Assembly (NCBI GenBank): GCA_031459385.1
Contig: JAVKIP010000003.1
Span: 113,006 to 177,005, forward strand
DNA: 64,000 bases
Direction of reading: 5' to 3'
DNA from: Candidatus Fervidifonticultor secundus
Lineage (GTDB): Bacteria; Sysuimicrobiota; Sysuimicrobiia; Sysuimicrobiales; Humicultoraceae
In this document: positions 20,273-35,777 of the stretch, in pieces
How the letters are laid out: each line of letters opens with the position of its first letter
Position numbering within the stretch: the first letter of the stretch is position 1
Program-made: the position numbers and the translations under genes
The notes under the pieces: generated by a model
What the model saw: only the letters and a program-made list of their open reading frames with translations
Databases searched by the model: none
Told to the model about the DNA's origin: nothing

Positions 20273-22378
20273 TCAAAACCGGGGGTTATCGTACCAGCGG
20301 TCGATGATCTGATAGGCTGCTCGCAGGAACCGGGCATCCACGCCGCCCCCGGGGTCGAGGACGTACCCGACGCCCTGGTTGATGTGGATGTACTGGCCCA
20401 GCAGCGCCCCGGTGAACTCGCCCGCCTGGTTGATGCTGATGTTGGCCCTCGGGGCGAAAACCACTGCCGACACCCGGTTCTCCTGATCCCACCAGATGGA
20501 CGCGACGCCGGTCTCCTCGTACGACGGGTCGCTGGCGCAGCTCAGCACCTGGATGCGGTCCCCCGGCCAGACGAGCAGCGCGCCCGGCTTGGTGTCGTCC
20601 ACGCCGAACCACGACCGCTGCCCCAGACGGAACGTCCTCCCCACGTGGAAGTACACTTTTCCTCTCCCGGAGATGGCCAGGACCGCGTCCCGCTCGAAGA
20701 TGACGCTGGTGGCATGGATGTGCAGTTCGGCCGCGGGGTTGTCCGGCGTGCTGATCGTCATCCGCTGCCCGGCCCCCGGATGCACCTCATCGTAGCGGAG
20801 TTCCTTCACCAGGCCCTCGGCCTCGCTGTGCACGATGCGCAGCGGCGCATCGTTGTTCGGGTCTGGGCTCGGCGTGCACGGGGGCGGCACGAACGGCGCG
20901 CACAGGACCTCCCGCACGTGCTCCCGCACCACGCCGTCGACCTGCGCGGCACAGCCCTGCGAGCAGTTCACGTCGCGCCCTGCGAAGGCGTTGCCGAAGA
21001 TCGCGCGCGGCTCGGCGTAGATGACCGCCGTATCGGCGACCTTGTCGATATACCCTCGCTCGACGACCGAGGGGTTGGGGTTCAGATCGTCGAGCTGGTC
21101 GTTCCTCGGCGCGATCTCCGCGACGAACCGCCACGGCGCATTCGGCGTGCCGTCTTCCCTGCGCCGGTAGATGCGCCGCTTGAGCACGGTGGCGCTCTCG
21201 GGAATGCCGGTGAGCTTCGTGTACTGGCCGTTCAGGTCCAGTGGACCGGCGGCGGGGCTCGCGGGGCTGCTCCCCACGGACTCGATCTCGGCGGTCGTGG
21301 AACCCGGGTAGCGGTACACGTACGTGACCTTGTACGTGTAGCGGCCAGTCAGTCCCGGGGGCCGGACCGGCGGGTCGGCGGGAGCGGCCGCCGGCGCGCT
21401 CGCCGGCGCGGGCGGGCTGGGCGCCGTGGGGATCTGATGGATGAGCTCGCCGTCGACCCGCGTGTCGAGGTAGGTCTGCGTGCTATTGTCCGGAATCTCG
21501 CCCACGAAGAACCACGGCCCCGTCGCCGCCTGCCCCGCGCGGGTTCTGTAGACTCTCCGCTTGACGATCGCCGCGGCGCCCAGAGGGATATTCGTCAGGG
21601 ACCCGCTCTGGTTCGACAGCGCGACCGCGCCCGTCGCCGGGCTGCCGGCAGACTCGGCGCCGGCTGCGGTCACAAAGGTGACCTTCCAGGAGTAGGTGCC
21701 GGTCAGCCCGCGCGGCGCCTCGTCAGGGTCGATGGCGGTGGGCGTAAACCCGGCAGCGCCGGGGGGCGCCGCGAGGTCGTCGTCCCTCGCCTGGATGGTC
21801 CCCGGGTTGCGCCGTGGCCCCGCAACGGAGATGTCCCGATTGCTGGCCACATCGGCGGTGACAGACGTACCCTGGTCGAGCCGGACGCCCCGCCGGCCGC
21901 AGAACCCGCCGAACGCATCGCCGCCCGGCGGCGAGCGCCGCACCCATACCTCGATCCGACGCCGAGCGCGCCCGACGCTGCTGGTGGCGATGACGTGCCG
22001 CACCTCGTTGTCCTGACAGCCTGTGGCTCCGGGCGCGGCGCCGTCGGTGCACCGCACGGCGACCTGGAACACCCCTGGACCGAATGCGATGGGTGTTCCC
22101 GACCCCGTCCAGCACTCGTCGTTGGAATGGTTCGGGGCGCACACCCAGGGCGGAGTGGTCTGCACGGCCCGGTCGTAGAGCTGCGAAATCGCGTAGGCGA
22201 CGCCGGCCTCCGCCACGTTCAGCGTCTGGATCGCGAGACGGTTGGCCACCGCGCCGTGCAGGTCGCTCATGACCACCGAGAACACGCCGATGCCCATGAG
22301 CCCGACGAGGAGCGAGGTCACGAGCACGAGGGGAAGGGCGAAGCCTGGCTCCCTCCGCAGCCGGCGACACGTCACCAT
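20273..22378 (-). CDS. Module 1 X: large PilX/GspK-like minor pilin (701 aa)
   Basis: ATG at 22378 inside a longer ORF. The N-terminus RREPGFALPLVLVTSLLVGLMGIGVFSVVMSDLHGAVANRLAIQTLNVAEAGV has PilX-N-terminal-domain character: a hydrophobic helix, no Glu5, and ..Q(A/T)..(V/L)AEAG. It ends ...IIDRWYDNPRF and contains an internal ~90-aa duplication. Confidence 0.7.
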   Translation of the reverse strand: MVTCRRLRREPGFALPLVLVTSLLVGLMGIGVFSVVMSDLHGAVANRLAIQTLNVAEAGVAYAISQLYDRAVQTTPPWVCAPNHSNDECWTGSGTPIAFGPGVFQVAVRCTDGAAPGATGCQDNEVRHVIATSSVGRARRRIEVWVRRSPPGGDAFGGFCGRRGVRLDQGTSVTADVASNRDISVAGPRRNPGTIQARDDDLAAPPGAAGFTPTAIDPDEAPRGLTGTYSWKVTFVTAAGAESAGSPATGAVALSNQSGSLTNIPLGAAAIVKRRVYRTRAGQAATGPWFFVGEIPDNSTQTYLDTRVDGELIHQIPTAPSPPAPASAPAAAPADPPVRPPGLTGRYTYKVTYVYRYPGSTTAEIESVGSSPASPAAGPLDLNGQYTKLTGIPESATVLKRRIYRRREDGTPNAPWRFVAEIAPRNDQLDDLNPNPSVVERGYIDKVADTAVIYAEPRAIFGNAFAGRDVNCSQGCAAQVDGVVREHVREVLCAPFVPPPCTPSPDPNNDAPLRIVHSEAEGLVKELRYDEVHPGAGQRMTISTPDNPAAELHIHATSVIFERDAVLAISGRGKVYFHVGRTFRLGQRSWFGVDDTKPGALLVWPGDRIQVLSCASDPSYEETGVASIWWDQENRVSAVVFAPRANISINQAGEFTGALLGQYIHINQGVGYVLDPGGGVDARFLRAAYQIIDRWYDNPRF

Positions 22379-22395
22379 CGTGCGCACCTCGCCTT

Positions 22396-23034
22396 CTATG
22401 GCCCGCGTAGGCTGACGACCGTCTGGTACGTCTGCCGCTCGGGCGGCCGCCCTGCGGCCGATGCCGCCTCCACGGTCATCGTGATCCTCAGCGAGTGGAC
22501 CTGCCGGCGATCGGCGGTCACGTTGCCGTCCCGATCGAGGTAGACGAACCCGCCCCCACTCTGCACGATGGGTGGGGTGAGGGCGATGCGGCTGGGATCC
22601 GGGGCGGTCCGGGTGGTGACCTCGTCGGTGCACGGCTCCACTTCCTCGGGGCGGGTCTCCTGATAGAGCGTCTGGTTCTCCACGTAGTACACGTAGCGCA
22701 GTCGATCGTCGGGAGGTGCGCCGGGTGGGGACCGGTCCTCGAGGATGGCGTGGAAGGCCAGCCGCTGGCCGAATCCGTTGCCGGTGCCGATGACCAGGAA
22801 GCCCTCGGGGCAGGGCCGGTCGGCGTCGTAGTTCACCTGGCGCACCCGGTCGGCCAGCCACGCCATGGCCTGCCGTGCGCGCTCCTGGTCCGAGACCCGG
22901 GCGTGGACGATGAACCGCCCCCTGATGACGGCGCTGAGCAGCAGGTAGAGGCTGCTCACGACCAGCGCGGCGATGGCTAGGCTGGAGACCAGCTCGATCA
23001 GGGTCAGGCCCTCGGCGCGGCGCAGCAGCTTCAC
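22396..23034 (-). CDS. Module 1 W: PilW/GspJ-like prepilin-type minor pilin
   Basis: GTG at 23034 overlaps the upstream stop (GTGA). The class III signal is VKLLRRAEG|LTLIELVSSLAIAALVV. Confidence 0.75.
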   Translation of the reverse strand: MKLLRRAEGLTLIELVSSLAIAALVVSSLYLLLSAVIRGRFIVHARVSDQERARQAMAWLADRVRQVNYDADRPCPEGFLVIGTGNGFGQRLAFHAILEDRSPPGAPPDDRLRYVYYVENQTLYQETRPEEVEPCTDEVTTRTAPDPSRIALTPPIVQSGGGFVYLDRDGNVTADRRQVHSLRITMTVEAASAAGRPPERQTYQTVVSLRGP

Positions 23035-23555
23035 GGCGGGCACCGTCCGGTGAAGATCTCCGCAACGTACGTCGTGGTGGAGGCGTCCGGCGGGTACACA
23101 TCCGGGTCTGGCCGCGGTCCGGGCCCCCAATCGGTCTTGTAGTAGTACACGGTGACGCGCTGCATCGCGGGCCCCGCCGGCTCGACCTCCACGTACCCTG
23201 CGTCGGGAGCCGTCCCGGCCCGGCCCTCGACCACGGCCGGCAGCGCCGGTTCGCCCCGCAGCGTCGGATGCGGGACCTTCCAGCCCGGTTCGGGCAGCGG
23301 GGAGCACAGACGCCGCAGGAACTCGATCTCCCCCTGCATCCACAGGGTGGCTGCGCTGCGATCCTGGGACTGCTGGCGAGTGATGGTCAGGCTGCCGACG
23401 ATCGCGCCCATCATGAGCGGTGTCGCCAGCCCCAGGATCAGCATCGTGACGAGCAACTCGACCAGCGTGAAGCCCCCGCGCCCAGACCAGGACGCGAGGG
23501 CCCTCGCCGTGGCTGCGGGTGCCCTATCCACAGTCGGACGGTCGCCGCGTGTCAT
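23031..23555 (-). CDS. Module 1 V: PilV/GspI-like prepilin-type minor pilin
   Basis: The class III signal is ...WSGRGG|FTLVELLVTMLILGL. Confidence 0.75.
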   Translation of the reverse strand: MTRGDRPTVDRAPAATARALASWSGRGGFTLVELLVTMLILGLATPLMMGAIVGSLTITRQQSQDRSAATLWMQGEIEFLRRLCSPLPEPGWKVPHPTLRGEPALPAVVEGRAGTAPDAGYVEVEPAGPAMQRVTVYYYKTDWGPGPRPDPDVYPPDASTTTYVAEIFTGRCPP

Positions 23556-24078
23556 CGGTGATCGCTCCGGTCTGCGCCGCCACGCAGATGTGGTAGGCCT
23601 TGCCTGTCAGGCTGCTGCGCACCCTGAGGGTCCCGCCGGCCTGCGGAATGCCCGTGGGGTCCCAGGCGAGCGCGGCCGGCAGGGACGACCATTCGACATC
23701 GGCGGGGAAGCAGTAGCGCTTGATCACGGCCGCCGCCTGCGCAATCGTGTACGACGGTCGGTCGACGCATGCCGGATCGCTGGCCGCGAACGTCACATCG
23801 ACGTCGGCGCGGCGCGTCAGCGCTTCCTGCTGGGCGACGCGCAGATCGGACGCCAGGGTGCGCGCCACGGCCAGCGCGCGCTGGTTGCTCTGGTAGTTGC
23901 GGTACGAGGGCAGGCTGAGCCCGAGGACGACGCCCGCCAGCGCGAGGACGAGCACGGTCTCCAGATACGAGACACCACGCTGACCCCTGTAGGGAACCGC
24001 CGCCCCGCCCATCGGCGCCGACGCCTGCGCTCGGCCCTCGCGCGCCGAGCGCCGCTCAGAATCACGAAGAGAGCGCAT
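23524..24078 (-). CDS. Module 1 H: FimT/GspH-like prepilin-type minor pilin
   Basis: ATG 24078 lies 8 nt after the AGAGGG of the upstream riboswitch-like element. The signal is ...YRGQRG|VSYLETVLVLALAGVV, followed by ARTLASDLRVAQQEA (GspH/FimT-like). Confidence 0.7.
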   Translation of the reverse strand: MRSLRDSERRSAREGRAQASAPMGGAAVPYRGQRGVSYLETVLVLALAGVVLGLSLPSYRNYQSNQRALAVARTLASDLRVAQQEALTRRADVDVTFAASDPACVDRPSYTIAQAAAVIKRYCFPADVEWSSLPAALAWDPTGIPQAGGTLRVRSSLTGKAYHICVAAQTGAITDDTRRPSDCG

Positions 24079-24086
24079 CCGCGCGG

Positions 24087-24176
24087 CCCTCTTCGGTAGC
24101 CCGGCCGACCCGCCGACACAGCCGGGTCCCGCAGCTTTGCGCCCCCGGATCGCTCCGGGGTCAGCCCGTTCGGAGG
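24087..24176 (-). promoter_or_regulatory. c-di-GMP-I (GEMM-I)-like riboswitch, copy A, leader of module 1
   Basis: The minus-strand RNA is CCUCCGAACGGGCUGACCCCGGAGCGAUCCGGGGGCGCAAAGCUGCGGGACCCGGCUGUGUCGGCGGGUCGGCCGGGCUACCGAAGAGGG. It shares the GGC(A/U)(A)ACC - hairpin - GGG(A/G)CGCAAAGC - hairpin - GGGYUACCGA layout that I recall from GEMM-I (for example Vc2). Two further copies occur in the window. Confidence 0.7.
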
Positions 24177-24343
24177 TGTCGGCTCGAACCTTCCCTGCAA
24201 GCTCCCTGGACCTTCACCGGAGGTGCCCCACCGCCGGCGAAGGGTTGTGAGTGTTCTCCAGGCCGGCGAGAACTCCTCCTGACGATCCCCTGGGCGATTT
24301 GCCCCGGGGTGAAGGTCCCCGGGGTGATGTTCCCCTGCGGGGC

Positions 24344-24940
24344 TCAGTCCGGAACCTTCTCGGGCCCCCTGTTCCGGTAGGCGTTGATGAACGCCACGAT
24401 CCGGCCCTCGTCGTAGGCGTCGAGCGTCAACAGCCGCTCCCAGGCCGCCACGGCAATGGCGCGGTCGTTCTGCGGCCGCGGCGTCAGGATGACCTTGCTG
24501 CGATACCGCCCCACCAGCTCTTCCAGCTTCTCCACCAGCGCGGTGTCCTTCGGATCCCGGTAGGAGATCCAGATGCCGCCGTGTTCCAGGTTGTGAACGA
24601 CGATCTCGTCGGGGATCGGCTCGCGATGGACGCCCCAGGGCGCCACCTGGTTCCCGGTGTGCCAGCCAGAGGTGGGCGGGTTGGAGTTGTATGGCGGGTG
24701 CGGTTGGCCCAGCGCGATGTGCTGTCGGCCCTGACCCGGGATGCGGTCGCCCGGGCCGGGGCGCAGCGCCGACCAGACGATGAGCGCCACCAGCACGACC
24801 GCACCCGCCGCCACGCTGCCGTAGACCGTGACCTGCCGCCTGCGCCGGCGCGTCTGCTCCTGCCGCTGGGCCTGGCGCCGGGCCTCGCGGGCGGCTTCCC
24901 GACGCTGGTGCTTGGCTTCTCGCGCGGTGGACCCGGCCAT
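24344..24940 (-). CDS. DUF3105 domain-containing membrane-anchored protein
   Basis: It has an Arg-rich N-terminus and one TM helix, then HPPYNSNPPTSGWH and VVHNLEHGGIWISY motifs typical of DUF3105. Confidence 0.7.
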   Translation of the reverse strand: MAGSTAREAKHQRREAAREARRQAQRQEQTRRRRRQVTVYGSVAAGAVVLVALIVWSALRPGPGDRIPGQGRQHIALGQPHPPYNSNPPTSGWHTGNQVAPWGVHREPIPDEIVVHNLEHGGIWISYRDPKDTALVEKLEELVGRYRSKVILTPRPQNDRAIAVAAWERLLTLDAYDEGRIVAFINAYRNRGPEKVPD

Positions 24941-25133: not shown

Positions 25134-25862
25134 ATGCACCGCCGGTGGGCACTGTTGCTATGGAGCAGGAGTCGCGACGTCCTCCGACAATGGCCACCCC
25201 GGAGCGATCCGGGGGCGCAAAGTCCCAGGGCCCGCGCGATCCGCGGGCTGGCTGCACTGCCGAAGAGGGCGACGTGTGAGTCATGCCAGGGCACACGCGC
25301 TGGCTCGGAGGCGAGGACCATCACGTCCAGGGCGCGAGACGGATTCACCCTGCTGGAAACCCTGATCGTTGTGGCGGTGCTGGGCCTGCTCCTGGGCTTC
25401 TCTGTGCCCCTCTACCGCGGCTCCCTGGCCGACCGCGCCGTCTGGAACGCCGCCTTTCAGGTCCAGAACGACCTCCGGCTGGCGCAGCAGGTCGCCCTCG
25501 CCAGGGCAGGGCGCGGGCCGAGGGTGGAGCTGTGCTTCCTGAGCGCGAACCATGACGCCGGCTACGAGATCTACACGGTGGACTACACCGACCGGTTTGC
25601 GCGGACGGGCGCGGTGATCGGCCAGACGGTGAAGGTCGTCAGGGCCGGCGAGGCCTTCCGCACCGGCCTCGACGTGGACGTGGAGGCAGGGGCAACGCAG
25701 GCCTGCCTGGCCGGTGGCGGCAGACCGGCACTGGTCTACCTGAGCACGGGCAGCCCGACGTTTGCCACCGAGCGGCGCATCACCCTTACCTATCAGGGCC
25801 GCTCGCGGTGCGTCACGATCACCCCCACGACGGGCCGCGCCACGGCGGGGCGGTGTCCGTGA
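25134..25862 (+). CDS. Module 2 H: FimT/GspH-like prepilin-type minor pilin (start unresolved)
   Basis: The signal is ...SRARDG|FTLLETLIVVAVLGLLLG, followed by AAFQVQNDLRLAQQVA. The only canonical in-frame start is ATG 25134, which lies upstream of the riboswitch-like element. The real start is probably downstream (see findings). Confidence 0.6.
   Translation: MHRRWALLLWSRSRDVLRQWPPRSDPGAQSPRARAIRGLAALPKRATCESCQGTRAGSEARTITSRARDGFTLLETLIVVAVLGLLLGFSVPLYRGSLADRAVWNAAFQVQNDLRLAQQVALARAGRGPRVELCFLSANHDAGYEIYTVDYTDRFARTGAVIGQTVKVVRAGEAFRTGLDVDVEAGATQACLAGGGRPALVYLSTGSPTFATERRITLTYQGRSRCVTITPTTGRATAGRCP
25181..25269 (+). promoter_or_regulatory. c-di-GMP-I (GEMM-I)-like riboswitch, copy B, leader of module 2
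   Basis: CCUCCGACAAUGGCCACCCCGGAGCGAUCCGGGGGCGCAAAGUCCCAGGGCCCGCGCGAUCCGCGGGCUGGCUGCACUGCCGAAGAGGG. It has the same conserved blocks as copies A and C, with a different but still self-complementary second hairpin. Confidence 0.7.
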
Positions 25863-26413
25863 GGGCGGTCCGTGGCAGCCGGACCGGCCCTCCCCGACTG
25901 CGCGCCGCCGGCTTTACCACCTTCGAGGTCCTGCTGGCCGCCGTGGTGGTGGCGCTCGTGGTGGCGTTCACGATCCGGGTGGTTGTCGCGACACTGGGGC
26001 TCGTGGGAAGTTCCGAGCGGGACCCGCAGCACGGCGCGCGCGCCCGGTCGCAGGCGACCGAGTGGATCCAGGCAGCGATCGAATACAGCCGGGCCGTCGG
26101 GTTCGACGCGCTGCGCAGGGCGCCGACGTGCGCTGCGCTGACCGCGCTGTCGCCATGTCACTTCTGGATTCCGCCGGCGGTCGACAGCGCGGATAGGCCG
26201 TTCGACCTGGGGCCGGCGCTGCCTTCTGGCTTCGACTGCGGCCATGTGCAACTGGCGCAGTGGAGCGCCAGCCCGCCGCCCGGCGGCGATCTCGACAACC
26301 TGCTGTCGCTGACCGTGGAGGTCTACCGGTCCCGCACGTCCTGCGACGCCGGCGGGACCGGGCAGGCGTTCATGACCGCTCAGACCGCCATCGCCAGGCG
26401 GCAGGGACCGTAG
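25859..26413 (+). CDS. Module 2 V: PilV/GspI-like prepilin-type minor pilin
   Basis: GTG 25859 overlaps the upstream stop (GTGA). The signal is VRAVRGSRTGPPRLRAAG|FTTFEVLLAAVVVALVV. Confidence 0.75.
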   Translation: MRAVRGSRTGPPRLRAAGFTTFEVLLAAVVVALVVAFTIRVVVATLGLVGSSERDPQHGARARSQATEWIQAAIEYSRAVGFDALRRAPTCAALTALSPCHFWIPPAVDSADRPFDLGPALPSGFDCGHVQLAQWSASPPPGGDLDNLLSLTVEVYRSRTSCDAGGTGQAFMTAQTAIARRQGP

Positions 26414-26427
26414 ACGAGGAACCGGGC

Positions 26428-29469: not shown

Positions 29470-29996
29470 CGCCGCGCAAGCCGGATGGCGGGTTCACGCT
29501 GATCGAGGTGGTCATCGCCATGCTGCTGCTTGGCATCGTGGCGCTGGGGAGCAGCGGCGTGGTCCGGTCGCTGGGCCTGCTGGGGCGCTCGCAGATCTCC
29601 AGCGACCGCCACGAGCGGCCCGCGCGGCTGCGCACGCTGGCCATGGAGTACATCCAGGCCGAACTGGAGTACCTGCAGAACCGCTCGTACTACGCCCTGC
29701 GCGACGCCTCGGCGTGCAACCCGCCCGGGGCGCCCACGCCGATCGCCGCGGCGCGCCGCGTCCCGAGCAGCTACCTGGACGCCAGCGAGCCTCGCCTGCC
29801 GGCCTCGTTCGCAGCGGCGGACATCATCATCACGACGGATCCGACCATCACCGCGCCGGCGTCCCCGCCCCTGGACTGCCGGCCCAGGGTCATGAGCGTC
29901 ACCGTCTACCTGGCGCCCGGCGACCTGCCGGCTGTGCCCGGCGGCGCAGGCGGCACCCCCTTCATCCGCGGCGCCACGGCCCGGTCGTGGCGATAG
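29466..29996 (+). CDS. Module 3 V: PilV/GspI-like prepilin-type minor pilin
   Basis: ATG 29466 overlaps the upstream stop (ATGA). The signal is MTPRKPDGG|FTLIEVVIAMLLLGIVALG. Confidence 0.8.
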   Translation: MTPRKPDGGFTLIEVVIAMLLLGIVALGSSGVVRSLGLLGRSQISSDRHERPARLRTLAMEYIQAELEYLQNRSYYALRDASACNPPGAPTPIAAARRVPSSYLDASEPRLPASFAAADIIITTDPTITAPASPPLDCRPRVMSVTVYLAPGDLPAVPGGAGGTPFIRGATARSWR

Positions 29997-30025
29997 CCAC
30001 CGGACGCCGCCGGGAGGACGGAACG

Positions 30026-30661
30026 ATGCCACGGCACGCGACGCGGACGGCTGACCGGCGGGGCGAGCGGGCATTCACCGTGCTGGAAGTGCTGGTGGCG
30101 CTCAGCCTCTTCGGGGTGGTCCTGCTCACGGGCTTTGCGGCGTTCAACGCCAGCTACCGCGGTCTGGTGGCGGGCAAGGAGCTGGCCGACGAGCACCAGA
30201 ACGCGCGGCTGGTCCTGGAGTGGATCACCCGCCGGATTCGCCTTGCCGGCATCGGCGCGCCCCCCGGCACCACGGCCTTCTTCAGCGAAGCCGGTACCAG
30301 CGCCCTGGCGTTCGTCGCCGATACCGACGCCGACGGGGTACTCGAGTGGCGCCGGTACTGCCTGGATGCCGCCGCAGGCGCGGTCCGCGAGCAGGTGCTC
30401 GAACCCGCACCCACCCCGCTGCCGTCCCCCGGCGACGCCTGCGCCGGCGCGACCATCACCTCCCAGGGGCTGCATGCGCTGCGCGTCTCCCTGCTGCAGT
30501 TCTCGTACTTCAACGGGCAGGAGGCGGCAACCAGCGCCCTGTCCCAGATCCGCCGGGTCCGGATCGTGCTGGGCCTGGACTCGAACCGCTCGGGCGCCTA
30601 CGACGCCGCCCAGGACGTCACCTTCACGATGGACGCCGTGCTGCGGAACCCGCTCCAGTAG
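30026..30661 (+). CDS. Module 3 W: PilW/GspJ-like prepilin-type minor pilin
   Basis: ATG 30026. The signal is MPRHATRTADRRGERA|FTVLEVLVALSLFGVVLL, with Ala instead of Gly at -1. Confidence 0.7.
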   Translation: MPRHATRTADRRGERAFTVLEVLVALSLFGVVLLTGFAAFNASYRGLVAGKELADEHQNARLVLEWITRRIRLAGIGAPPGTTAFFSEAGTSALAFVADTDADGVLEWRRYCLDAAAGAVREQVLEPAPTPLPSPGDACAGATITSQGLHALRVSLLQFSYFNGQEAATSALSQIRRVRIVLGLDSNRSGAYDAAQDVTFTMDAVLRNPLQ

Positions 30662-30696
30662 CGGGGACGCCGTCTGCCGCCGGAGGGCATGTGACC

Positions 30697-32568
30697 ATGG
30701 ACAGCGCGCGACCCACAACGTCGGTCAGGCGATCGCCCGGCGAGGCCGGGCTGGCGCTGGCCCTCGTGCTCTTGACCATCAACGTCATCCTGATCGTCAC
30801 CGCGACCCTGGTGGCCATCGCGCTGAACGAGTACCAGGCCGCGGCTAGCGGCGAGCGGTCGCGCCAGGCATTTCAGCTGGCCGAGGCCGGGCTGGAGAAG
30901 GCGATCTACGAGCTAAAGCGCGACCTGGACTGGACCGACTCCGGCGCATCCGCAGCCGCCACCAGGAACCTCAACGACCCGCGGGAGTGGGCACCGCTGT
31001 GGGACGGGAGCGCGAACCTCGTCGACACGCCGTTCCCGGCGGGGGCGACGATCGGCGAGATCACCGTCGAGCTGTGCCGCGACGACAACTTCGGCGACGG
31101 CAACGGCTGCCCGGGCGTGCCCGCGCCGACCGTGGCCGGGTGCACCCCGAATGCCTGCATCTGGGTGCGGGCCACCGGGCGCATCCCCGGGCTGGCCGCG
31201 CGGCAGATCGAGTTCCTCCTGAGCCAGATGGCGCCGGGGTACGACCTGATCAACTACTCGGCGAGCCCCATCAACATCGGCGCCGGCGGCGGCGGCAACG
31301 GCAGTTTCATCCTCCACGGCTCGCTCTACATCGCCTCGTGCCTCGACCCCGACGGGGGCGGTCCCCAGCCGTGCGTGGGTCTCGTCATGCAGGGTGACGG
31401 CGCCATCCTCAACGACGTGCCGTATCCCACGCCGGGCGACCCGGACACCACCCCACCCTACAACAACAAGGTCTATGTGGTCGGTCAGATCCAGGGCCAG
31501 GGCAACTCGTGGCAGATCGGCCTGGACAGCCAGCCCATGCAGGGCGTCTATGCCACCCTGGGCTGGTCCAGCGGCTACGAGAACCAGATCGACGCGCTCG
31601 ACAAGGGGACCGTGGTGCCATTTGTACCCTTCCCCGACCCCTCGAAGCTCTGTGAGCCGGGGGCCCCCGGCGATCCACCGCGGTGCCTAATGAACCGGCT
31701 CAACCTGCCACCGGCCGACGGCGGCATCACGCCCATCAACGCCGACCTGGCGTACGTCTGCACGGCCGCCACCTGCACCACTGCGGCCTCGTGGACGCCG
31801 GTGTACATCCGGGGGCCCCTGGCCGACCCCCTCACGCCGCTGCGGCTCTCGGCGAACAACCCGACGCGCACCCGGGTCGTGATTCCCGACCGCAACCCCG
31901 ACGGCTCGCCGGCGGTGAACTGCACGACGACGCCGTCGACGTGCAATGTCGCCGCCGGGACCGGCAGCGTGAACGGGTCGGGGAACTTCTCCCTGGTCTA
32001 CAACGGCTACGCGGGCGCCGGCCAGGTGAACCTGTGGACGCAGTCCGGGGCCGATGCCTTCATCCACACCACCAAGCACGTTCGGATCGACGGCGACGTG
32101 CGCTACGCCGGCCGCACGACGTTCCTGATCGAGAACGCCGACGACGTGGGCGCGGCGATGCCGGCACTGGAGATCCGCGGGTCGGTCACGCCGCTGTGCC
32201 GGGCCAGCCAGACCACCTGCGCCCAGACGTTCGGTCAGGCCAACGGGGACACCTACGCGTTCGCGGTCGGCCCCAAGTGCACGGGCGCGCCGCCCAGCGG
32301 TTCGCTGGTCTGCACGCCGACCGGGGGCGGCGTCTACGTCCGGGGGTCGGGGATCGAGCTGAACCTGGTGGTGCTGGCCCACGGGACGCTCAAGAACGAC
32401 AACCCGCAGACCTGGTACGGCATGTTCATCGCGGGCCTGCTGGACTGGGACAACAACCCGTCCATCTATCCCGTGGCCAACCTGAAGGCGAACCTCCCGC
32501 CCGGCATCGCTCCGCTGGCCAAGCCGGGGTTCGGGCTGCAGATCACGCGATGGCGCGAGGTCTTTTAG
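30697..32568 (+). CDS. Module 3 X: large PilX/GspK-like minor pilin (623 aa)
   Basis: ATG 30697. The N-terminus is ...RRSPGEAG|LALALVLLTINVILIVTATLVAIALNEYQAAASGERSRQAFQLAEAGLEKA. The C-terminus is ...LQITRWREVF. Confidence 0.7.
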   Translation: MDSARPTTSVRRSPGEAGLALALVLLTINVILIVTATLVAIALNEYQAAASGERSRQAFQLAEAGLEKAIYELKRDLDWTDSGASAAATRNLNDPREWAPLWDGSANLVDTPFPAGATIGEITVELCRDDNFGDGNGCPGVPAPTVAGCTPNACIWVRATGRIPGLAARQIEFLLSQMAPGYDLINYSASPINIGAGGGGNGSFILHGSLYIASCLDPDGGGPQPCVGLVMQGDGAILNDVPYPTPGDPDTTPPYNNKVYVVGQIQGQGNSWQIGLDSQPMQGVYATLGWSSGYENQIDALDKGTVVPFVPFPDPSKLCEPGAPGDPPRCLMNRLNLPPADGGITPINADLAYVCTAATCTTAASWTPVYIRGPLADPLTPLRLSANNPTRTRVVIPDRNPDGSPAVNCTTTPSTCNVAAGTGSVNGSGNFSLVYNGYAGAGQVNLWTQSGADAFIHTTKHVRIDGDVRYAGRTTFLIENADDVGAAMPALEIRGSVTPLCRASQTTCAQTFGQANGDTYAFAVGPKCTGAPPSGSLVCTPTGGGVYVRGSGIELNLVVLAHGTLKNDNPQTWYGMFIAGLLDWDNNPSIYPVANLKANLPPGIAPLAKPGFGLQITRWREVF

Positions 32569-32610
32569 GGGTCTAGGGCGGCCCGGAAACGGGCAAAGAG
32601 TTCCAGGGCT

Positions 32611-32700
32611 CCTCCGACAAAGGCTACCCCGGAGCGATCCGGCGGGCGCAAAGCTCCAGAACCCGGGTTCTCCCAGGTTGGCTGAGCTACCGAAGAGGGG
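32611..32700 (+). promoter_or_regulatory. c-di-GMP-I (GEMM-I)-like riboswitch, copy C, leader of module 4
   Basis: CCUCCGACAAAGGCUACCCCGGAGCGAUCCGGCGGGCGCAAAGCUCCAGAACCCGGGUUCUCCCAGGUUGGCUGAGCUACCGAAGAGGGG. GTG 32707 follows after 6 nt. Confidence 0.7.
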
Positions 32701-32706
32701 AGAGTT

Positions 32707-33231
32707 GTGGGAACTGCCTTCTGCAGAGCCACGCGCACGGGCTCGAGCCCGTCCGCTCCGCACCGCACGCGCCGAATCCCACACGGTGCTCGTCAGGCGC
32801 CCTCTGGGCGCTGGCAGGCCGGGTACACGGTCCTGGAGCTGCTCATCGTCTCGGCGATCGGCCTGCTGGTGCTGTCGTTCGGGGTCGGCAGCATCAGCCG
32901 GGCCATGGCCCGCGAGGAGCTGGATGGCTGGGCCCGGGCCATCGCCGTCGAACTCACGGCCGCCCAGCAGGCGGCCATGACGCGCCGGACCAGCGTCACG
33001 GTGTCGTTCCAGAACAACGCCTTCATCGTGGTGGCCAGCGGCGGCGGCACGCTGCGCGCGCAGGACCTGCCGTCCCACATCAGCTTCGGCGCCACGCTGC
33101 AGACGGTGACGTTCGACCGGCGGGGGGTGCCAGGCGGCGCGTCCTCCGTATCGCTGACGAGCACGCGCGCCGGGAAGACCTACACCATCACGATCCAGCC
33201 CAACACGGGACGGGTGACCGCAGATGGCTGA
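32707..33231 (+). CDS. Module 4 H: FimT/GspH-like prepilin-type minor pilin
   Basis: GTG 32707 follows directly after the AGAGGGG of the leader element. The signal is ...SGRWQAG|YTVLELLIVSAIGLLVL, followed by ARAIAVELTAAQQAA. Confidence 0.7.
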   Translation: MGTAFCRATRTGSSPSAPHRTRRIPHGARQAPSGRWQAGYTVLELLIVSAIGLLVLSFGVGSISRAMAREELDGWARAIAVELTAAQQAAMTRRTSVTVSFQNNAFIVVASGGGTLRAQDLPSHISFGATLQTVTFDRRGVPGGASSVSLTSTRAGKTYTITIQPNTGRVTADG

Positions 33232-33661
33232 CCGCCCGCGCGCCCGCCGCGCCAGCGGCGGGTTCACCCTGATCGAGGTCGTCGTCGCCATGGCCGTGCT
33301 CTCCCTGGTGGCCACCACCGCGCTGGGCGGGCTGCTGTTCACCATGACCCAGACCCGGCGCGGCTTCGACCGGGCCCAGGCCGCGGCATGGGTCCAGGCC
33401 GAGCTGGACTTCCTGCGCACCATGGGGTACGGGCTGGCGCCGGGGACGCGCACTGTGCCCACTGACGGCTATCTGGCCAACAGCGACCTGCAGGAACCGC
33501 GGATTCCCGACGGGTTCGACCGGGCCGAGATCGTCGTCGAGGACCTCACCGGCAGCCTGGGCATTCCCCTGAAGTCCATGACGGTGCGCCTGTACCAGAC
33601 GCCGACCTCCCCGCCCTACACGATCCTCGTCACGTATGTGGCGAACTTCGACTACCCGTGA
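33224..33661 (+). CDS. Module 4 V: PilV/GspI-like prepilin-type minor pilin
   Basis: The signal is MADRPRARRASGG|FTLIEVVVAMAVLSLV. It overlaps the H gene by 8 nt. Confidence 0.8.
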   Translation: MADRPRARRASGGFTLIEVVVAMAVLSLVATTALGGLLFTMTQTRRGFDRAQAAAWVQAELDFLRTMGYGLAPGTRTVPTDGYLANSDLQEPRIPDGFDRAEIVVEDLTGSLGIPLKSMTVRLYQTPTSPPYTILVTYVANFDYP

Positions 33662-34371
33662 GCGGACCAGCGATGCGCCGGCCTGGGGCAGCACGGCACG
33701 GACAGGCGGGGATCTCCCTCGTCGAGGTCATGGTGGCCATGGTCATCATGACGGTCGTCATCGGGACGATCGCGACGCTGGTGGGCGCGTCGGTCCGCAG
33801 CAAGATGATCGTGGCCAGCCGGTCCTCCGACACGGAGACGGCACGCCAGACGCTGGAGATGATGTCCGAGCGGCTGCGCAACGCGGGGCTGAACATCGAC
33901 CCTGCGGCCCAGCCCGACCGCTGCGACGACATGGTCGTGGCCAAGGACCCGGCCCTGCGGCCGACGGCGACCCAGCTCTACGTGGCCGGCGAGATCTTCA
34001 ACTCGAACACGACCGCGGGCGACCAGGTGATCGTGCTGGGCTACCGGCTCACCGGCGGCCGGATCGTCGAGGACCGCAGCGCGTGCGGCGTATGGGCTCC
34101 GACGACCAGCGATGTCTCGAACCCCGGGATCACGGTGACGAGCCTGCTCTTCCGGTACTTCGGCTCAAGCGGCGGCGAGATCACCGTACCCACAACCGAC
34201 GAGGAGGCGATCCGGAGCATCCGCGTGGTGCAGATCAGCCTCACGGTCCGGGCCGAGGAGGGACGGTCGGGCGCCCAGATCCAGCGCTTCAGCCGGCAGG
34301 TGATGCTGCGCAACCCCCGGCCGGACCGCAGTGGCTGGCTGCCGCCGGCCGGATGGGAGACGAATCCATGA
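33658..34371 (+). CDS. Module 4 W: PilW/GspJ-like prepilin-type minor pilin
   Basis: GTG 33658 overlaps the upstream stop (GTGA). The signal is ...ARHGQAG|ISLVEVMVAMVIMTVVIG. Confidence 0.75.
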   Translation: MSGPAMRRPGAARHGQAGISLVEVMVAMVIMTVVIGTIATLVGASVRSKMIVASRSSDTETARQTLEMMSERLRNAGLNIDPAAQPDRCDDMVVAKDPALRPTATQLYVAGEIFNSNTTAGDQVIVLGYRLTGGRIVEDRSACGVWAPTTSDVSNPGITVTSLLFRYFGSSGGEITVPTTDEEAIRSIRVVQISLTVRAEEGRSGAQIQRFSRQVMLRNPRPDRSGWLPPAGWETNP

Positions 34372-35777
34372 AAAGAGGCACGATGCGGCCCGCCGGCGCC
34401 GGGCGCCTGCGCCGCACGCCGGCGGGCGGCCAGGCTGGCGCGGCGCTGCTCTCGGTGGTGCTCTTCCTGCTGCTGATCCTGATGGTCACGGTGGGTGTCA
34501 TGGCGGTGGTCCGCAGCGACCTGGCGGCCGGCATCCGCCAGCAGCAGGCCGTGCAGGTCTTCAACGTGGCGGAGGCGGGCGTGCACTACGCCATCGCGCG
34601 CCTGCAGACCTCTGGGGCGAACCGGTACGACGGGGCCACGGTCCCCATCACCGACGGCAGCACCACCATCGGGACCGCCACCATCCAGGTCCGCTGCCTG
34701 GACGGCACCCTCCCGAGCGCCAGCGCCTGCAACGGTGCCGAGCCGGCCTACCGGCGGATCGCCTCCACCGGAACGCTCACGGTGGCAGGACCCCGTCGGG
34801 TGGTGACGGCGGTGGTCGAGGGCACGACCTCAGTGACACGGACCTACGCGGTGTGCGCCTACGACGCCCTGACCCTCGACCAGCAGGTGACGGTCTACGG
34901 GTCGGTGGGCACCAACGGCATTATGACGCTCAGCGGGCCCAACAACCTCAACCGTGCGGCGATCTGCGACTCCACCCCGGGCGGGCTGGGCGGCCGGTGC
35001 GGCACGCCCAATCCCGCACCCGCCAGCTCGTTCACGGCCGGCGCCTCCGCCGTGGGGACCATCACGTGCAACGGGGGCGGCTGTGCCAACCAGGTGGAAG
35101 GGCCGACGACACCCAACCAGCCGGCCGGGTCGGTATGCCCGACGGTCACGCTCCCGGGCTGGGGGCCCCCGGGCACCACGCCCCTGTCGGTGCCCCTCGG
35201 CAGCACGGTGTTCGCCAACCCCGCCACCAACTACGGCTCCGTGACGCTGGCGGATACGCCCGGCAACCCCAACCCCTGCCCGTCGGACCCCGCGCAGCGC
35301 GCCACGCTGGTGCTGGACGCGGGCAGCGACCCCACCGCGACGGTCACGTTCCAGATGGCCACGCTGTCGGTCGGCAAGTGCGCCCGCGTCGAGATCCGCG
35401 GGCAGGGGAAGGTCGAACTGCGGTTGCTCGCGCCGACCACCACGGCGCTGCGCACCGTCCAGCGCTCGGTCCTGGGGACCACCTCGCAGACCGTCGGCAG
35501 CGAGGTGGCCGTGGAGGGCCACCGGTTCACGGTCAAGGTGGTGTCCACCCACTCGACCGCCGCCGTCGACTTCAACCAGTCGGGCTTGATCGCCGGCACG
35601 TTCATCGTGCCCAACGGCGGGTTCCACCTGGACCAGGCACAGATCACCAACGGCGCGATCCTGGCGAGGGCCGTCGACTTCGACCAGGGCACCACCTTCA
35701 CGTGGGACCCGCGGTCGATCATCGGCGACCAGGTCTACGGCGACTTTCGCCGGCTGCGAGCCTGGAAGGACCAGTAG
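34368..35777 (+). CDS. Module 4 X: PilX/GspK-like minor pilin (469 aa)
   Basis: ATG 34368 overlaps the upstream stop (ATGA). The N-terminus is ...PAGGQAG|AALLSVVLFLLLILMVTVGVMAVVRSDLAAGIRQQQAVQVFNVAEAGVHYA. The C-terminus is ...FRRLRAWKDQ. Confidence 0.7.
   Translation: MKRGTMRPAGAGRLRRTPAGGQAGAALLSVVLFLLLILMVTVGVMAVVRSDLAAGIRQQQAVQVFNVAEAGVHYAIARLQTSGANRYDGATVPITDGSTTIGTATIQVRCLDGTLPSASACNGAEPAYRRIASTGTLTVAGPRRVVTAVVEGTTSVTRTYAVCAYDALTLDQQVTVYGSVGTNGIMTLSGPNNLNRAAICDSTPGGLGGRCGTPNPAPASSFTAGASAVGTITCNGGGCANQVEGPTTPNQPAGSVCPTVTLPGWGPPGTTPLSVPLGSTVFANPATNYGSVTLADTPGNPNPCPSDPAQRATLVLDAGSDPTATVTFQMATLSVGKCARVEIRGQGKVELRLLAPTTTALRTVQRSVLGTTSQTVGSEVAVEGHRFTVKVVSTHSTAAVDFNQSGLIAGTFIVPNGGFHLDQAQITNGAILARAVDFDQGTTFTWDPRSIIGDQVYGDFRRLRAWKDQ

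Follow-up and report, generated by a model that had tools for sequence, protein, structure and literature searches.

Background

Multiple minor-pilin sets are already known. In Myxococcus xanthus, one major pilin and one machine are served by three clusters, each with genes for four minor pilins and PilY1; either of two minor-pilin clusters suffices, and one of the three has no detectable expression in laboratory conditions (PMC7541494). Cyanobacteria possess two FimT-PilW-PilV-PilX sets with a β-solenoid PilX, which prime distinct filaments (preprint 10.64898/2026.02.12.705559), and in Synechocystis two minor-pilin operons respond oppositely to c-di-GMP (PMC10124867). The T4P minor pilins of Thermus and cyanobacteria are closer to T2SS pseudopilins than proteobacterial minor pilins are, and ComZ itself has a published likeness to both the pilin fold and ice-binding solenoids (PMC6561018).

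Here we describe four adjacent four-gene sets from an uncultured hot-spring bacterium of the Armatimonadota, lying within a 64-kb stretch of DNA that we call the window. PilY1 is missing from the window, as it is from cyanobacteria and Thermus. The claim of the first-pass annotation that no precedent had been described thus fails against the M. xanthus and cyanobacterial systems; what is distinctive here is the tandem arrangement of putative alternative tip/priming complexes that are individually riboswitch-gated.

Four gene sets in one array

The region 20273-35777 (15.5 kb) holds 16 intact genes forming four H-V-W-X quartets, with module 1 on the minus strand and modules 2, 3 and 4 on the plus strand, together with one unrelated DUF3105 gene. 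Order, orientation and X lengths are as first annotated. The 4-nt ATGA and GTGA overlaps and the 8-nt overlaps, also noted at that stage, were verified at the gene junctions, and third-position GC is high in all sixteen quartet ORFs. Two further features belong to the region:

24344..24940, minus strand: DUF3105 gene, 198 aa (Pfam DUF3105, 1.1e-27)
35802..35836, plus strand: strong hairpin terminator with a 14-bp stem, closing the array 3' of X4 (terminator-like site search)

The hairpin is the sole strong terminator-like site in 19800-37200. The DUF3105 gene is a bystander outside the quartet system: no homolog occurs in any related quartet-bearing locus, and the syntenic locus L015 has neither this gene nor module 1.

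All twelve class III motifs quoted for the H, V and W proteins are present; a strict regular expression recovered ten, and G|VSYLE and G|VTVLE were seen by eye in the translations. Elsewhere in the window (48 kb) the same expression matched no real ORF.

Identity of the subunits

All four H proteins exceed the Pfam gathering score for GspH.

23524..24012, minus strand: H1, GspH/FimT-type minor pilin, motif G|VSYLE (GspH 27.5 bits, cutoff 21)
25320..25862, plus strand: H2, GspH/FimT-type minor pilin, motif G|FTLLE (GspH 25.2 bits and N_methyl 25.1 bits, both above cutoff)
28930..29469, plus strand: H3, GspH/FimT-type minor pilin, motif G|VTVLE (GspH 22.6 bits, cutoff 21)
32707..33231, plus strand: H4, GspH/FimT/ComGD-type minor pilin, motif G|YTVLE (GspH 27.7 bits)

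H4 also matches ComGD across its full length (3.2e-12, below cutoff). Leader lengths of the H genes are generally uncertain, as is the start of H4 at GTG 32707, 12 nt past a riboswitch aptamer. For H2, the starts ATG 25134 and TTG 25155 were ruled out because an aptamer occupies 25182-25264. No canonical start codon lies downstream of this aptamer, and we infer that H2 begins at ATC 25320, the only in-frame start past it, which has a GGAGG Shine-Dalgarno sequence (25307-25311) 8 nt before.

23031..23555, minus strand: V1, prepilin-like, motif G|FTLVE, weakly of GspI/PilV class (N_methyl 27.4 bits, above cutoff; XpsI 2.4e-4)
25853..26413, plus strand: V2, prepilin-like, motif G|FTTFE (motif and ORF)
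29466..29996, plus strand: V3, prepilin-like, motif G|FTLIE (N_methyl 32.9 bits)
33224..33661, plus strand: V4, prepilin-like, motif G|FTLIE, weakly of GspI/XpsI class (N_methyl 33.4 bits; XpsI 1.7e-6, GspI 1e-4)
22396..23043, minus strand: W1, prepilin-like, motif G|LTLIE, start GTG 23043 or 23034 (N_methyl 19.2 bits, just below the 21.2 cutoff)
26428..27018, plus strand: W2, prepilin-like, motif G|MTLMD (motif and ORF)
30026..30661, plus strand: W3, prepilin-like, motif A|FTVLE (N_methyl 23.4 bits)
33673..34371, plus strand: W4, prepilin-like, motif G|ISLVE, start ATG 33673 or GTG 33658 (N_methyl 28.2 bits)

Family matches of the V proteins (XpsI in 10 of 15 members, HpsC in nine, ComGE in eight, PilV in six) lean to GspI/XpsI/ComGE, with GspI-model scores all below curated cutoffs; V2 itself has no Pfam or NCBIfam match. 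The W proteins are pilin-like, and the Asp at position 5 of W2 is kept in the X2-type modules of two relatives (L001 and L004). Their first assignment to PilW/GspJ is unproven, as neither model matches past the N-terminal helix.

20273..22378, minus strand: X1, large tip-pilin-like protein, 701 aa, subfamily X1, C-terminus RWYDNP (ORF, AF2 model, Foldseek)
27030..28826, plus strand: X2, large tip-pilin-like protein, 598 aa, subfamily X2, C-terminus RWRELF (ORF, blastp, hhalign)
30697..32568, plus strand: X3, large tip-pilin-like protein, 623 aa, subfamily X3, C-terminus RWREVF (PilX_N 0.004 and GspK 0.05, both below cutoff)
34368..35777, plus strand: X4, ComZ-like tip pilin, 469 aa, subfamily X4, C-terminus WKDQ (AF2 pLDDT 86.7, Foldseek against the PDB)

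As first described, the N-terminal helix of the X proteins is hydrophobic and without Glu at position 5, where L, M, L or S stands. Their topology consists of a long α1 helix, four strands, a large insertion and a closing conserved strand with an invariant Trp. Matches to GspK models all stay below curated cutoffs. The profile searches that the first-pass annotation had proposed bore out GspH in the H proteins and gave neither a PilX_N match above cutoff for X3 nor a PilW match past the helix for W. The type B proteins X2 and X3 have an N-terminal pilin-like domain in common with type A (hhalign 96.8%), the N-terminal ~200 aa of X2 being homologous to type A X proteins (E 2.8e-10).

The best PDB match of X4 is ComZ (6qvi; E 2.2e-6, probability 1.00), followed by ice-binding-protein β-solenoids including FfIBP, the same two similarities published for ComZ. 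The confident X4 model thus has a Thermus ComZ-like fold, a GspK-like pilin domain bearing an ice-binding-protein-like β-solenoid. The X1 model (pLDDT 75) has a helix at 14-72, a four-strand sheet, β-rich domains and a last strand at 689-697; ComZ 6qvi is again the best match (E 0.018), and ice-binding β-solenoids were also matched. X1 bears two phage-like Ig/FN3-type modules and matches DUF7305 below cutoff (2.6e-4). Differing domain orientations and the lack of α1N in the crystal construct keep the TM-scores to ComZ low (0.19-0.27). The original reading of each unit as a core minor-pilin set is thus borne out by the GspH scores, the GspI-class models matched by V and the X4 fold.

Riboswitches upstream of three sets

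H1, H2 and H4 are each directly preceded by a c-di-GMP-I aptamer on the correct strand, 60-130 nt 5' of the H prepilin motif, and all three aptamers exceed the gathering score of 35 for Rfam RF01051.

24092..24176, minus strand: c-di-GMP-I aptamer before H1 (43.0 bits, E 4.4e-5, full-length model match)
25182..25264, plus strand: c-di-GMP-I aptamer before H2 (47.3 bits, E 4e-6)
32612..32694, plus strand: c-di-GMP-I aptamer before H4 (43.1 bits, E 4.2e-5)
24066..24094, minus strand: module-1 leader hairpin GAAGAGGGCCGC...GCGCUCUCUUC (RNAfold minimum-free-energy structure)

These riboswitches before modules 1, 2 and 4, the most distinctive feature of the locus, had been overlooked in the first-pass annotation. 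An Rfam search upstream of H3 (28827-28929) gave nothing at E <= 1. H genes in five related loci are likewise preceded by RF01051 aptamers (L001, L002, L004 with two, L015 with two, and L017), and the H4 aptamer is ~93% identical to that at the equivalent place in L015. Over 10 copies, compensatory changes preserve 9 of 23 pairs. When ranked by E-value, the variant model c-di-GMP-I-GGC fits the aptamers slightly better, yet below its threshold, so the ligand could differ.

Two kinds of candidate expression platform were found: a terminator overlapping the 3' strand of P1, or an anti-SD paired with the SD. The module-1 hairpin, a candidate terminator and expression platform on the predicted fold, shares the 3' strand of the aptamer closing helix, and L004, L017 and L001 have this same layout with canonical U-tracts. 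In the module-2 leader, the aptamer's 5' CCUCCGA pairs with UCGGAGG at 25305-25311 in the minimum-free-energy fold. From these folds we predict ON switches. In module 1 and its homologs with canonical terminators, ligand would stabilise aptamer closure (5' CCUC with 3' GAGG) and remove the terminator's 5' arm, and in module 2 ligand-stabilised closure would free the Shine-Dalgarno sequence, such that binding would turn expression on in both. The polarity of the H4 riboswitch is uncertain because the H4 start is. The C. difficile pilA1 riboswitch is an ON switch and c-di-GMP ON control is typical for adhesive structures, although polarity of class I riboswitches is not safely carried over between species (PMC6366702).

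Proposed alternative tips on a shared machine

We think it likely that the locus encodes four alternative core minor-pilin sets with different tips, used by a shared machine encoded elsewhere and chosen among through c-di-GMP riboswitches. Each set would provide four type IV pilus subunits: one GspH/FimT-like, one GspI/PilV-like, one in the GspJ/PilW position and a large one that is GspK/ComZ-like. As in GspHIJK, FimU-PilVWX and Thermus PilA1-3/ComZ, to which we draw the analogy, the set would assemble in the inner membrane, prime the filament and remain at the pilus tip, where the bulky β-solenoid X protein may cap the fibre and serve as adhesin or receptor. A different X per set would mean a different tip specificity or filament type, as expected because the X proteins form four old subfamilies with different inserted domains. 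A cyclic dinucleotide, most probably c-di-GMP, would govern the choice through three riboswitch-led units: module 1; module 2, probably co-transcribed with module 3; and module 4. Neither the window nor ~10 kb past either end (in a sister assembly) contains a major pilin, prepilin peptidase, PilB/C/M/N/O/Q/T or secretin, so that a link with functional pilus machinery is an assumption.

The quartets might instead serve short periplasmic pseudopili of T2SS-like or competence type, with the X β-solenoids in the role proposed for ComZ, as receptors of DNA or substrate, and four uptake or secretion specificities. We regard this as unlikely, though worth weighing: NCBIfam matches are mainly to T2SS pseudopilin and Com families (GspH, XpsI, ComGD with H4 at 3e-12, ComGE), the top structural match is a competence protein, and in one relative a single quartet adjoins cinA-recA-recX. 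However, T2SS-pseudopilin-like minor pilins are also what Thermus and cyanobacterial T4P have, gsp and com machinery is absent nearby, and the predicted c-di-GMP ON control and the Ig/FN3-like adhesin-type domains of X1 would suit adhesive structures. Such pseudopili would depart from alternative pilus tips only in filament length and function, the molecular architecture being the same.

Age and conservation of the sets

That duplication or horizontal acquisition has left redundant modules behind, one functional and the rest silent or decaying, is in our view very improbable. It would fit the M. xanthus cluster with no detectable laboratory expression, the missing canonical start of H2 and the variation among close relatives: the syntenic L015 has three quartets against four here, and a close relative holds a different cassette in the module-2 slot. 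Against it stand the intact ORFs with their high third-position GC, the conserved riboswitches, and the X orthologs and dN/dS values given below.

Paralogy is position-specific, with best matches H-H, V-V, W-W and X-X. Module 1 pairs with module 4 at E 1e-10 to 1e-14 (H1-H4 1.6e-14, V1-V4 1.3e-10, W1-W4 1.8e-10), and module 2 with module 3 at E 1e-11 to 1e-13 (V2-V3 3.7e-11, W2-W3 1.4e-13; H2-H3 only 3e-4). The modules are thus paralogous, as first claimed; at 26-40% identity between copies, they are, judged by divergence, four old subfamilies and not recent tandem duplicates. The quartet was found in about 14 MAG loci, five of them multi-quartet (two each in L001, L004, L010 and L017, three in L015), and every X subfamily has orthologs in several other Armatimonadota MAGs (X1 in L001 and L004, 65-68% identity; X2 in L001, L004 and L017, 42-44% by blastp; X3 in L015, 78-79%). 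The dN/dS comparison covers modules 1, 3 and 4, with values of 0.10-0.27, similar to 0.14 for the housekeeping gene coaX (H1 0.26, V1 0.20, W1 0.17 against L004, X1 0.24; H3 0.23 against L015, V3 0.25, W3 0.25, X3 0.25; V4 0.10, W4 0.17, X4 0.19). By this measure these modules show purifying selection and so would not be decaying copies.

Least credible of all is that the cassettes are pilin-like yet type IV pilus-independent, e.g. membrane-anchored surface adhesin complexes like the 'Verru_Chthon cassette' proteins A-D, to which weak position-specific NCBIfam matches (H to D, best 5.6e-8; V to B; W to C, 6 of 15 members; X4 to A) and a window without machinery point, since those matches are far below family cutoffs and confined to the N-terminal 60 residues, the GspH domain scores above its threshold, the match to the ComZ fold is specific, a prepilin peptidase, and with it a type IV filament system, is implied by the class III signal peptides, and a literature search found no paper on the cassette family.

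The idea of alternative tip complexes, raised in the first annotation, is reasonable because of the minor-pilin identities, the ComZ-like fold of X4 and the conservation of modules 1, 3 and 4. That three of the sets stand behind a c-di-GMP riboswitch of their own suggests that this second messenger may select which tip the pili carry.

Composition of the array and a missed, probable regulatory layer

Codon-position GC, motif searches and a listing of start codons gave sixteen intact genes and one DUF3105 gene at 20273-35777, bearing out the array of four H-V-W-X quartets (modules 1-4, with module 1 on the minus strand) described in the first-pass annotation. At a GC content of 72% the window contains many spurious ORFs, and no further ORF with a coding signal was found within the array, nor any pilY1 or pilC beside the minor pilins. 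X is the last gene in every quartet, and the 4-nt and 8-nt overlaps at the gene junctions are present as reported.

Searched for with a strict regular expression, the class III signal appeared in ten real ORFs, all within 20273-35777, and in none in the remaining 48 kb of the window. The expression missed the G|VSYLE of H1 and the G|VTVLE of H3, which are readable in the translations, so that the signal is present in all twelve small proteins (H, V and W), as had been proposed: Gly or Ala at -1, a hydrophobic helix and an acidic residue at +5, as in type IV pilin-like proteins (PF07963/TIGR02532). This residue is Glu in eleven proteins and Asp in W2, and the Asp is kept in the orthologs of W2. 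The N_methyl family (PF07963) exceeded its 21.2-bit cutoff in V1, H2, V3, W3, V4 and W4, was below it in W1 (19.2 bits) and H4 (15.8 bits), and gave no match in H1, H3, V2 and W2; this is a short motif in divergent proteins. The X proteins (X1-X4: 701, 598, 623 and 469 aa) also have the expected hydrophobic N-terminal helix without Glu5, position 5 being L, M, L and S, respectively.

The earlier account made no mention of riboswitches, which are now central to our interpretation. Comparison of the module 1 boundaries revealed a non-coding element of ~90 nt upstream of H2, inverted upstream of H1 and present also before the first H gene of L015, a syntenic locus of a close relative. It is the c-di-GMP-I aptamer (GEMM-I, Rfam RF01051), with three matches in the window above the gathering score of 35 bits, covering model positions 1-87 of 87:

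25182-25264, plus strand: c-di-GMP-I aptamer before H2 (RF01051, 47.3 bits)
32612-32694, plus strand: c-di-GMP-I aptamer before H4 (RF01051, 43.1 bits)
24092-24176, minus strand: c-di-GMP-I aptamer before H1 (RF01051, 43.0 bits)

All three lie on the coding strand, 76-126 nt ahead of the Gly(-1) codon of H2, H4 and H1. There is no aptamer before H3 even at E <= 1, and no terminator was found between X2 and H3, so modules 2 and 3 may form one transcript. L015, which has three quartets, shows the same pattern, with aptamers before its first and third quartets and none before the X3-type quartet.

Seven further copies of RF01051 (45-60 bits) were found upstream of H genes in related loci from other MAGs and metagenomes (numbered L001-L018): in L001, L002, L004 (both quartets), L015 (first and third quartets) and L017. 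At threshold there were none in the quartet loci L005, L007-L010, L012-L014 and L018. The link between aptamer and quartet is thus frequent, not universal. Every aptamer shares the strand of its H gene and precedes the H motif by 60-132 nt. An RNAalifold analysis of ten copies yielded the two-helix GEMM-I fold with its closing helix P1 (5' CUCC with 3' GAGG). In this fold, 9 of 23 pairs are preserved although both partners have changed. The pocket consensus segments GGC, GCAAAG and CCGAA, which we take to map to G20, A47 and C92 of Vc2, are retained. The ligand is most likely c-di-GMP, since the aptamer sequences score above threshold with RF01051 and below it with the variant model c-di-GMP-I-GGC (RF03167; 38-45 bits in E-value mode, threshold 59 bits); a literature search found no ligand data for this variant.

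Two other riboswitches in the related loci are not linked to a quartet. A c-di-GMP-I-GGC variant above threshold (RF03167, 62 bits) lies at 9233-9307 (minus strand) of L011, before the gene for a 637-aa TPR/HTH-type regulator, which is divergent from a lone X4-like gene without H-V-W upstream. L004 has a third RF01051 aptamer at 13438-13506 (minus strand), cut by the contig end, upstream of small non-pilin ORFs including one of 142 aa (12357-12785).

Expression platforms and translation starts

In relatives of lower GC content the aptamer is directly followed by a textbook intrinsic terminator, whose 5' arm starts with the 3' strand of P1. An example from L004 reads GAAGAGGGCU-GCAACAG-AGCCCUCUUC-UCAUUUUUU, and the terminators of L017, of the X1-type quartet of L004 and of L001 resemble it. 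The same hairpin is found in module 1 at 24066-24094, with a poor U-tract. In the minimum-free-energy fold of module 2, CCUCCGA at the 5' end of the aptamer pairs with UCGGAGG, which holds the Shine-Dalgarno (SD) sequence GGAGG, 8 nt upstream of the ATC at 25320. In both designs, terminator and SD, a ligand-stabilised P1 would lead to expression, and from these modelled structures we infer an ON polarity for the switches of modules 1 and 2. Class I riboswitches occur in both polarities, and extrapolation from one to another has been warned against (PMC6366702).

The start codons of two H genes are unusual. H2 has no canonical start between riboswitch and prepilin motif, where the single in-frame candidate is ATC 25320; ATG 25134 and TTG 25155 lie 5' of the aptamer, which an ORF beginning there would have to traverse. 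Judging from the sequence, H2 probably depends on the non-canonical ATC start. For H4, the only canonical start is GTG 32707, 12 nt after the aptamer, and its SD-like sequence GAGGGGAG is the 3' strand of P1 itself. In both H4 (32695-32820) and its L015 ortholog (8283-8411) this sole canonical GTG directly follows the aptamer and is 38-39 codons before the cleavage site; the stretch may be translated as a long leader peptide, or it may be untranslated, with the gene starting at a non-canonical codon (ATC at -15/-17). The leaders of module 4 and L015 are ~55% identical and differ by indels of 6 nt and 3 nt.

The X proteins and a ComZ-like fold

Profile searches did not sustain the description of the X proteins as PilX- or GspK-like at any curated cutoff. 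X3 reached 17.5 bits (0.004) with PilX_N (PF14341; cutoff 25.5), X3 and X4 reached 13-17 bits (0.004-0.05) with GspK (NF037980; cutoff 130), and X1 and X2 matched neither profile. A match to DUF7305 among the X proteins (3e-4) was also below cutoff.

Structure prediction was more informative for X4. Its model, built from 47 sequences (pLDDT 86.7), has three chains of Thermus ComZ as first-ranking Foldseek matches (E 2e-6 to 9e-6, probability 1.00), followed by many β-solenoids of ice-binding proteins, including FfIBP (probability 0.9-1.0). In ComZ, a β-solenoid resembling ice-binding proteins is inserted between the last two strands of a GspK-like pilin domain, and a protein of this type has been argued to fit only at the pilus tip (PMC6561018). 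The two matches of X4 are the same two similarities that were published for ComZ (PMC6561018). The order of secondary structure elements, a helix at residues 22-78, four strands, an insertion of ~290 residues (156-446) and a last strand at 457-468, fits a solenoid inserted ahead of the last β-strand of a GspK-like pilin domain. On the predicted structure, we classify X4 as a ComZ-like β-solenoid tip pilin.

The X1 model (31 sequences, pLDDT 75) begins with an N-terminal helix of 59 residues and a sheet of four strands, continues with β-rich domains and ends in a last strand; its top PDB match is again ComZ, weakly (E 0.018). A Trp in the C-terminal strand is invariant in all X types. X1 and X4 (type A) are homologous to X2 and X3 (type B) over the N-terminal ~200 residues (hhalign 96.8%, E 3e-10) and the remainder differs; sequence searches of the PDB with type B proteins returned generic pilin-helix matches alone.

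X1 also contains two copies of a module of ~85 aa (residues ~225-300 and ~345-425) that is single-copy in homologs of 560 aa. The module matches PDB 8jov, a 'virion-associated phage protein', by sequence (E 1e-4), and the X1 model is structurally similar to uncharacterised virion proteins of phages, to 'stabilization' proteins and, less strongly, to FN3-like proteins. These matches suggest an adhesin-type Ig-like decoration.

Class assignment of the small pilins

The assignment of the H proteins to the FimT/GspH class held: the GspH domain (PF12019) scored above the Pfam gathering score of 21 in H1, H2, H3 and H4 (27.5, 25.2, 22.6 and 27.7 bits). H4 also aligned over its full length with ComGD (3e-12), below cutoff.

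For the 15 members of the V family, taken from the window and related loci, the NCBIfam models matched were XpsI (10/15), HpsC (9/15), ComGE (8/15), PilV (6/15) and GspI (4/15), all of them sub-cutoff and mainly N-terminal. XpsI (1.8e-8), ComGE (6.6e-7) and GspI (8e-6) gave the best scores, which were still far from the cutoffs and for the most part covered the N-terminal 60 residues, and no V protein reached a curated GspI, XpsI, PilV or ComGE model at its cutoff. Although sub-cutoff, the preference for the GspI/XpsI/PilV/ComGE class is consistent across the 15 members.

The W proteins are pilin-like and have the right position and size for the proposed PilW/GspJ class, but no specific GspJ or PilW match was obtained from Pfam, NCBIfam or PDB. 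In Pfam the family matched N_methyl alone; in NCBIfam there were scattered weak matches, to GspJ or PRK08808 in 1/15 and to 'Verru_Chthon C' in 6/15 members, and a literature search on the 'Verru_Chthon cassette' gave nothing usable. Profile searches of the PDB with V and W returned generic N-terminal pilin helices alone, and thus the PDB lends no support to a GspI or GspJ identity. By gene position and size, W is a putative equivalent of GspJ/PilW.

Origin and maintenance of the modules

In an all-against-all BLASTP the best paralog was always a protein of the same position (H-H, V-V, W-W, X-X). Module 1 pairs with module 4 (E 1e-10 to 1e-14) and module 2 with module 3 (V, W and X, E 1e-11 to 1e-13; H, 3e-4). 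A recent tandem duplication can be dismissed, as identities are 26-40% and every module is closer to orthologs elsewhere than to its paralogs in the window.

Relatives of X1 and X4 are few, all from metagenomes or MAGs labelled Armatimonadota or just 'bacterium'; in an exhaustive profile search, no more than 71 of 1.84 billion cluster representatives reached E <= 1e-10. Using position-specific HMMs built from the window proteins, we identified complete quartets in ~14 loci, five of which have more than one:

L004: X1-type and X2-type quartets, convergent; a third quartet is on L009, from the same MAG
L010: two X4-type sets in tandem
L017: an X2-type, then an X4-type quartet
L001: X2-type and X1-type quartets
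L015: three quartets in tandem

BLAST and the C-terminal signature (X1 RWYDNP, X2 W(R/Q)ELF, X3 RWREVF, X4 WKDQ) define four X subfamilies, each with orthologs in several genomes, and the window has one member of each. L015 lies on a 3.15-Mb contig, has a coaX that is 87% identical and is syntenic on both sides of the array (metallo-β-lactamase on one, ppa, coaX, coaBC and PHO4 on the other). Module 1 and the DUF3105 gene are missing from it, and its first slot holds an X3-like cassette, with no X2 ortholog there.

For orthologous pairs of modules 3 and 4 (against L015) and module 1 (against L004), module 2 being without a close enough ortholog, dN/dS was 0.10-0.27, compared with 0.14 for coaX. 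Together with the orthologs across genomes, these values indicate that the modules are old, maintained and combined differently in different genomes; they contradict a view of the modules as recent duplicates or decaying copies.

We considered the DUF3105 gene (24344-24940, minus strand) as a part of the system. It lies between modules 1 and 2, upstream of the module 1 riboswitch and on its strand, and is missing together with module 1 from L015; none of the related quartet loci has a counterpart, and the gene is thus a bystander. No mobile-element-type repeats were found flanking module 1 and DUF3105, the sole long inverted repeat being the two riboswitch copies.

Genomic surroundings

No major pilin, prepilin peptidase (peptidase A24), ATPase, platform protein or secretin was found in the 64-kb window or just beyond it, and there is no gspC-G or gspL-M near the array. 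Look-ups of the edge genes led to a fragmented sister assembly, with no pil genes beyond the window ends. The flanks are of a housekeeping nature and include L25, metallo-β-lactamase, ppa, coaX, coaBC, PHO4, a DEAD helicase, rho, RF1 and argS.

The longest ORF for the inorganic pyrophosphatase (35826-36935, minus strand) encodes 369 aa, of which only residues 177-327 form the domain. At this site ppa (161 aa) and a gene for a low-molecular-weight phosphatase (117 aa) are separate in L015, and hence the ORF in the window probably reaches too far or is a fusion. An SLH-domain protein with a BsuPI domain (54394-55884, minus strand) and a 999-aa UPF0182 membrane protein (4637-7636, minus strand) are envelope features consistent with a lineage of the Terrabacteria type.

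Several neighbours of the related quartets are also worth recording. A tRNA gene lies on the opposite strand, ~100 nt or less downstream of an X4-type X, in L010 (6019-6103), L013 (4348-4432) and L017 (11449-11533), and could mark a site of recombination or integration for cassettes of this type. The single X4-type quartet of L018 adjoins cinA-recA-recX and ftsK (4106-8238 and 8461-11374), a weak hint that the ComZ-like X4 type may be competence-related. Two adjacent ORFs of L001 (3104-4980), not preceded by H-V-W, match the profile of type B X proteins (C-terminus RWREIF); they perhaps represent a split X gene, or an additional one, lying between this contig's two quartets. Finally, a 602-aa protein without Pfam match follows the X of a single X1-type quartet in L002 (6776-8584; the same in L003) and may be an accessory tip or adhesin protein.

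Comparison with known pilus systems

A close structural parallel is pilA1-pilA2-pilA3-comZ-pilA4 of Thermus thermophilus (ComZ, PDB 6QVI), where three small pilins are likewise followed by a large pilin-like protein without Glu5; the X4 model matches ComZ first and next the ice-binding-protein β-solenoids to which the ComZ paper likens ComZ. Sequence similarity between the X proteins and ComZ was not detectable. Unlike in Thermus, X is not followed by a major pilin gene, a riboswitch lies upstream, and there are four sets instead of one, X1-X3 having other or additional domains.

In cyanobacteria, a 2026 preprint describes two conserved FimT-PilW-PilV-PilX sets, 'Com' and 'EPS', as priming filaments that differ in morphology, and proposes that they do so on shared machinery. 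Every cyanobacterial PilX has a ComZ-like β-solenoid, which is thought by its authors to stand in for PilY1, and the subfamilies of PilV co-vary with those of PilX (Schuergers et al., 10.64898/2026.02.12.705559). The minor-pilin operons pilA5-6 and pilA9-12 of Synechocystis respond to c-di-GMP in opposite directions, and no c-di-GMP riboswitch is known in cyanobacteria (PMC10124867). Several complete core sets per genome and a β-solenoid on the PilX/ComZ-like subunit, predicted here for X4, are shared features. The array differs in having four subfamilies rather than two, all adjacent, under predicted cis-acting control by c-di-GMP riboswitches and in the phylum Armatimonadota; links to the Com and EPS classes are confined to weak HpsC matches of the V proteins.

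In Myxococcus xanthus a single major pilin and a single machine are served by twelve minor pilins, encoded in three clusters that each comprise FimU-PilV-PilW-PilX and PilY1; for piliation, either cluster 1 or cluster 3 is sufficient on its own (PMC7541494). Related work states that many other bacteria have multiple sets too. M. xanthus is the direct precedent for interchangeable priming or tip complexes. Its sets are dispersed, under protein regulators, each with a PilY1 adhesin and a small PilX, whereas here the sets are in tandem, X is large, PilY1 is absent and riboswitches stand in front.

The c-di-GMP riboswitch Cdi-2-4 of Clostridioides difficile, in the 5' leader of the pilA1 operon, turns expression on by preventing an intrinsic terminator (PMC6366702), an architecture that module 1 and its homologs in L004, L017 and L001 would share. 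Cdi-2-4 is of class II and serves the major pilin and assembly genes; the three aptamers described here are of class I (RF01051), with one minor-pilin set apiece.

The quartets resemble the GspH-GspI-GspJ-GspK tip of type II secretion in gene order, size pattern, the GspH domain of H and the weak GspI-class matches of V, and X resembles GspK in lacking Glu5 and through its relative ComZ with a GspK-like pilin domain. In contrast to GspHIJK, the GspK α-domain is missing, no equivalog model comes anywhere near its cutoff, and gspC-G and gspL-M are not nearby.

Implications for a possible choice of the pilus tip

The first-pass annotation read the array as interchangeable pilus-tip complexes and knew of no described precedent. 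The reading of core minor-pilin sets with alternative tips stands, and we infer that each quartet assembles into a tip complex. The supposed lack of a precedent does not hold, M. xanthus (PMC7541494) and the cyanobacterial sets (10.64898/2026.02.12.705559) being precedents: that several interchangeable core minor-pilin sets can exist is established. New is that four subfamilies lie next to each other, that tips of the ComZ type without PilY1 occur in one more phylum, and that three of the four sets have individual class I riboswitches, all of this in combination. Literature searches returned no report on riboswitch-gated minor-pilin sets or on pilins of Armatimonadota.

It is possible, if rather doubtful, that the array works as a 'tip selector', in which one machine could be primed by each of four ComZ-like tip complexes and the three class I riboswitches, through their differing platforms, would choose the tip or filament as c-di-GMP rises. 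Such a selector would combine a terminator-type platform before module 1, an SD-release platform before modules 2 and 3, and, with the 3' strand of P1 itself SD-like, possibly the opposite polarity at module 4. If true, it would be a direct answer, at the RNA level, to the question of how bacteria with several minor-pilin sets choose between them.

Multiple minor-pilin sets are known from Myxococcus, cyanobacteria and Thermus, and the choice of a priming or tip complex for a single pilus machine is only partly understood; in the cases described in the cited literature, protein regulators are involved or the mechanism has not been identified. In this array the choice seems to be encoded in cis: three of the four adjacent sets have their own c-di-GMP riboswitch, and the arrangement of riboswitch before quartet is kept in several uncultured Armatimonadota. 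The findings extend the ComZ/β-solenoid tip-pilin architecture to another phylum and provide four naturally diversified, putative tip adhesins for ligand comparison. With three RNAs of ~85 nt and four tip proteins, this is a compact system that could tie the level of a second messenger to the identity of the tip.
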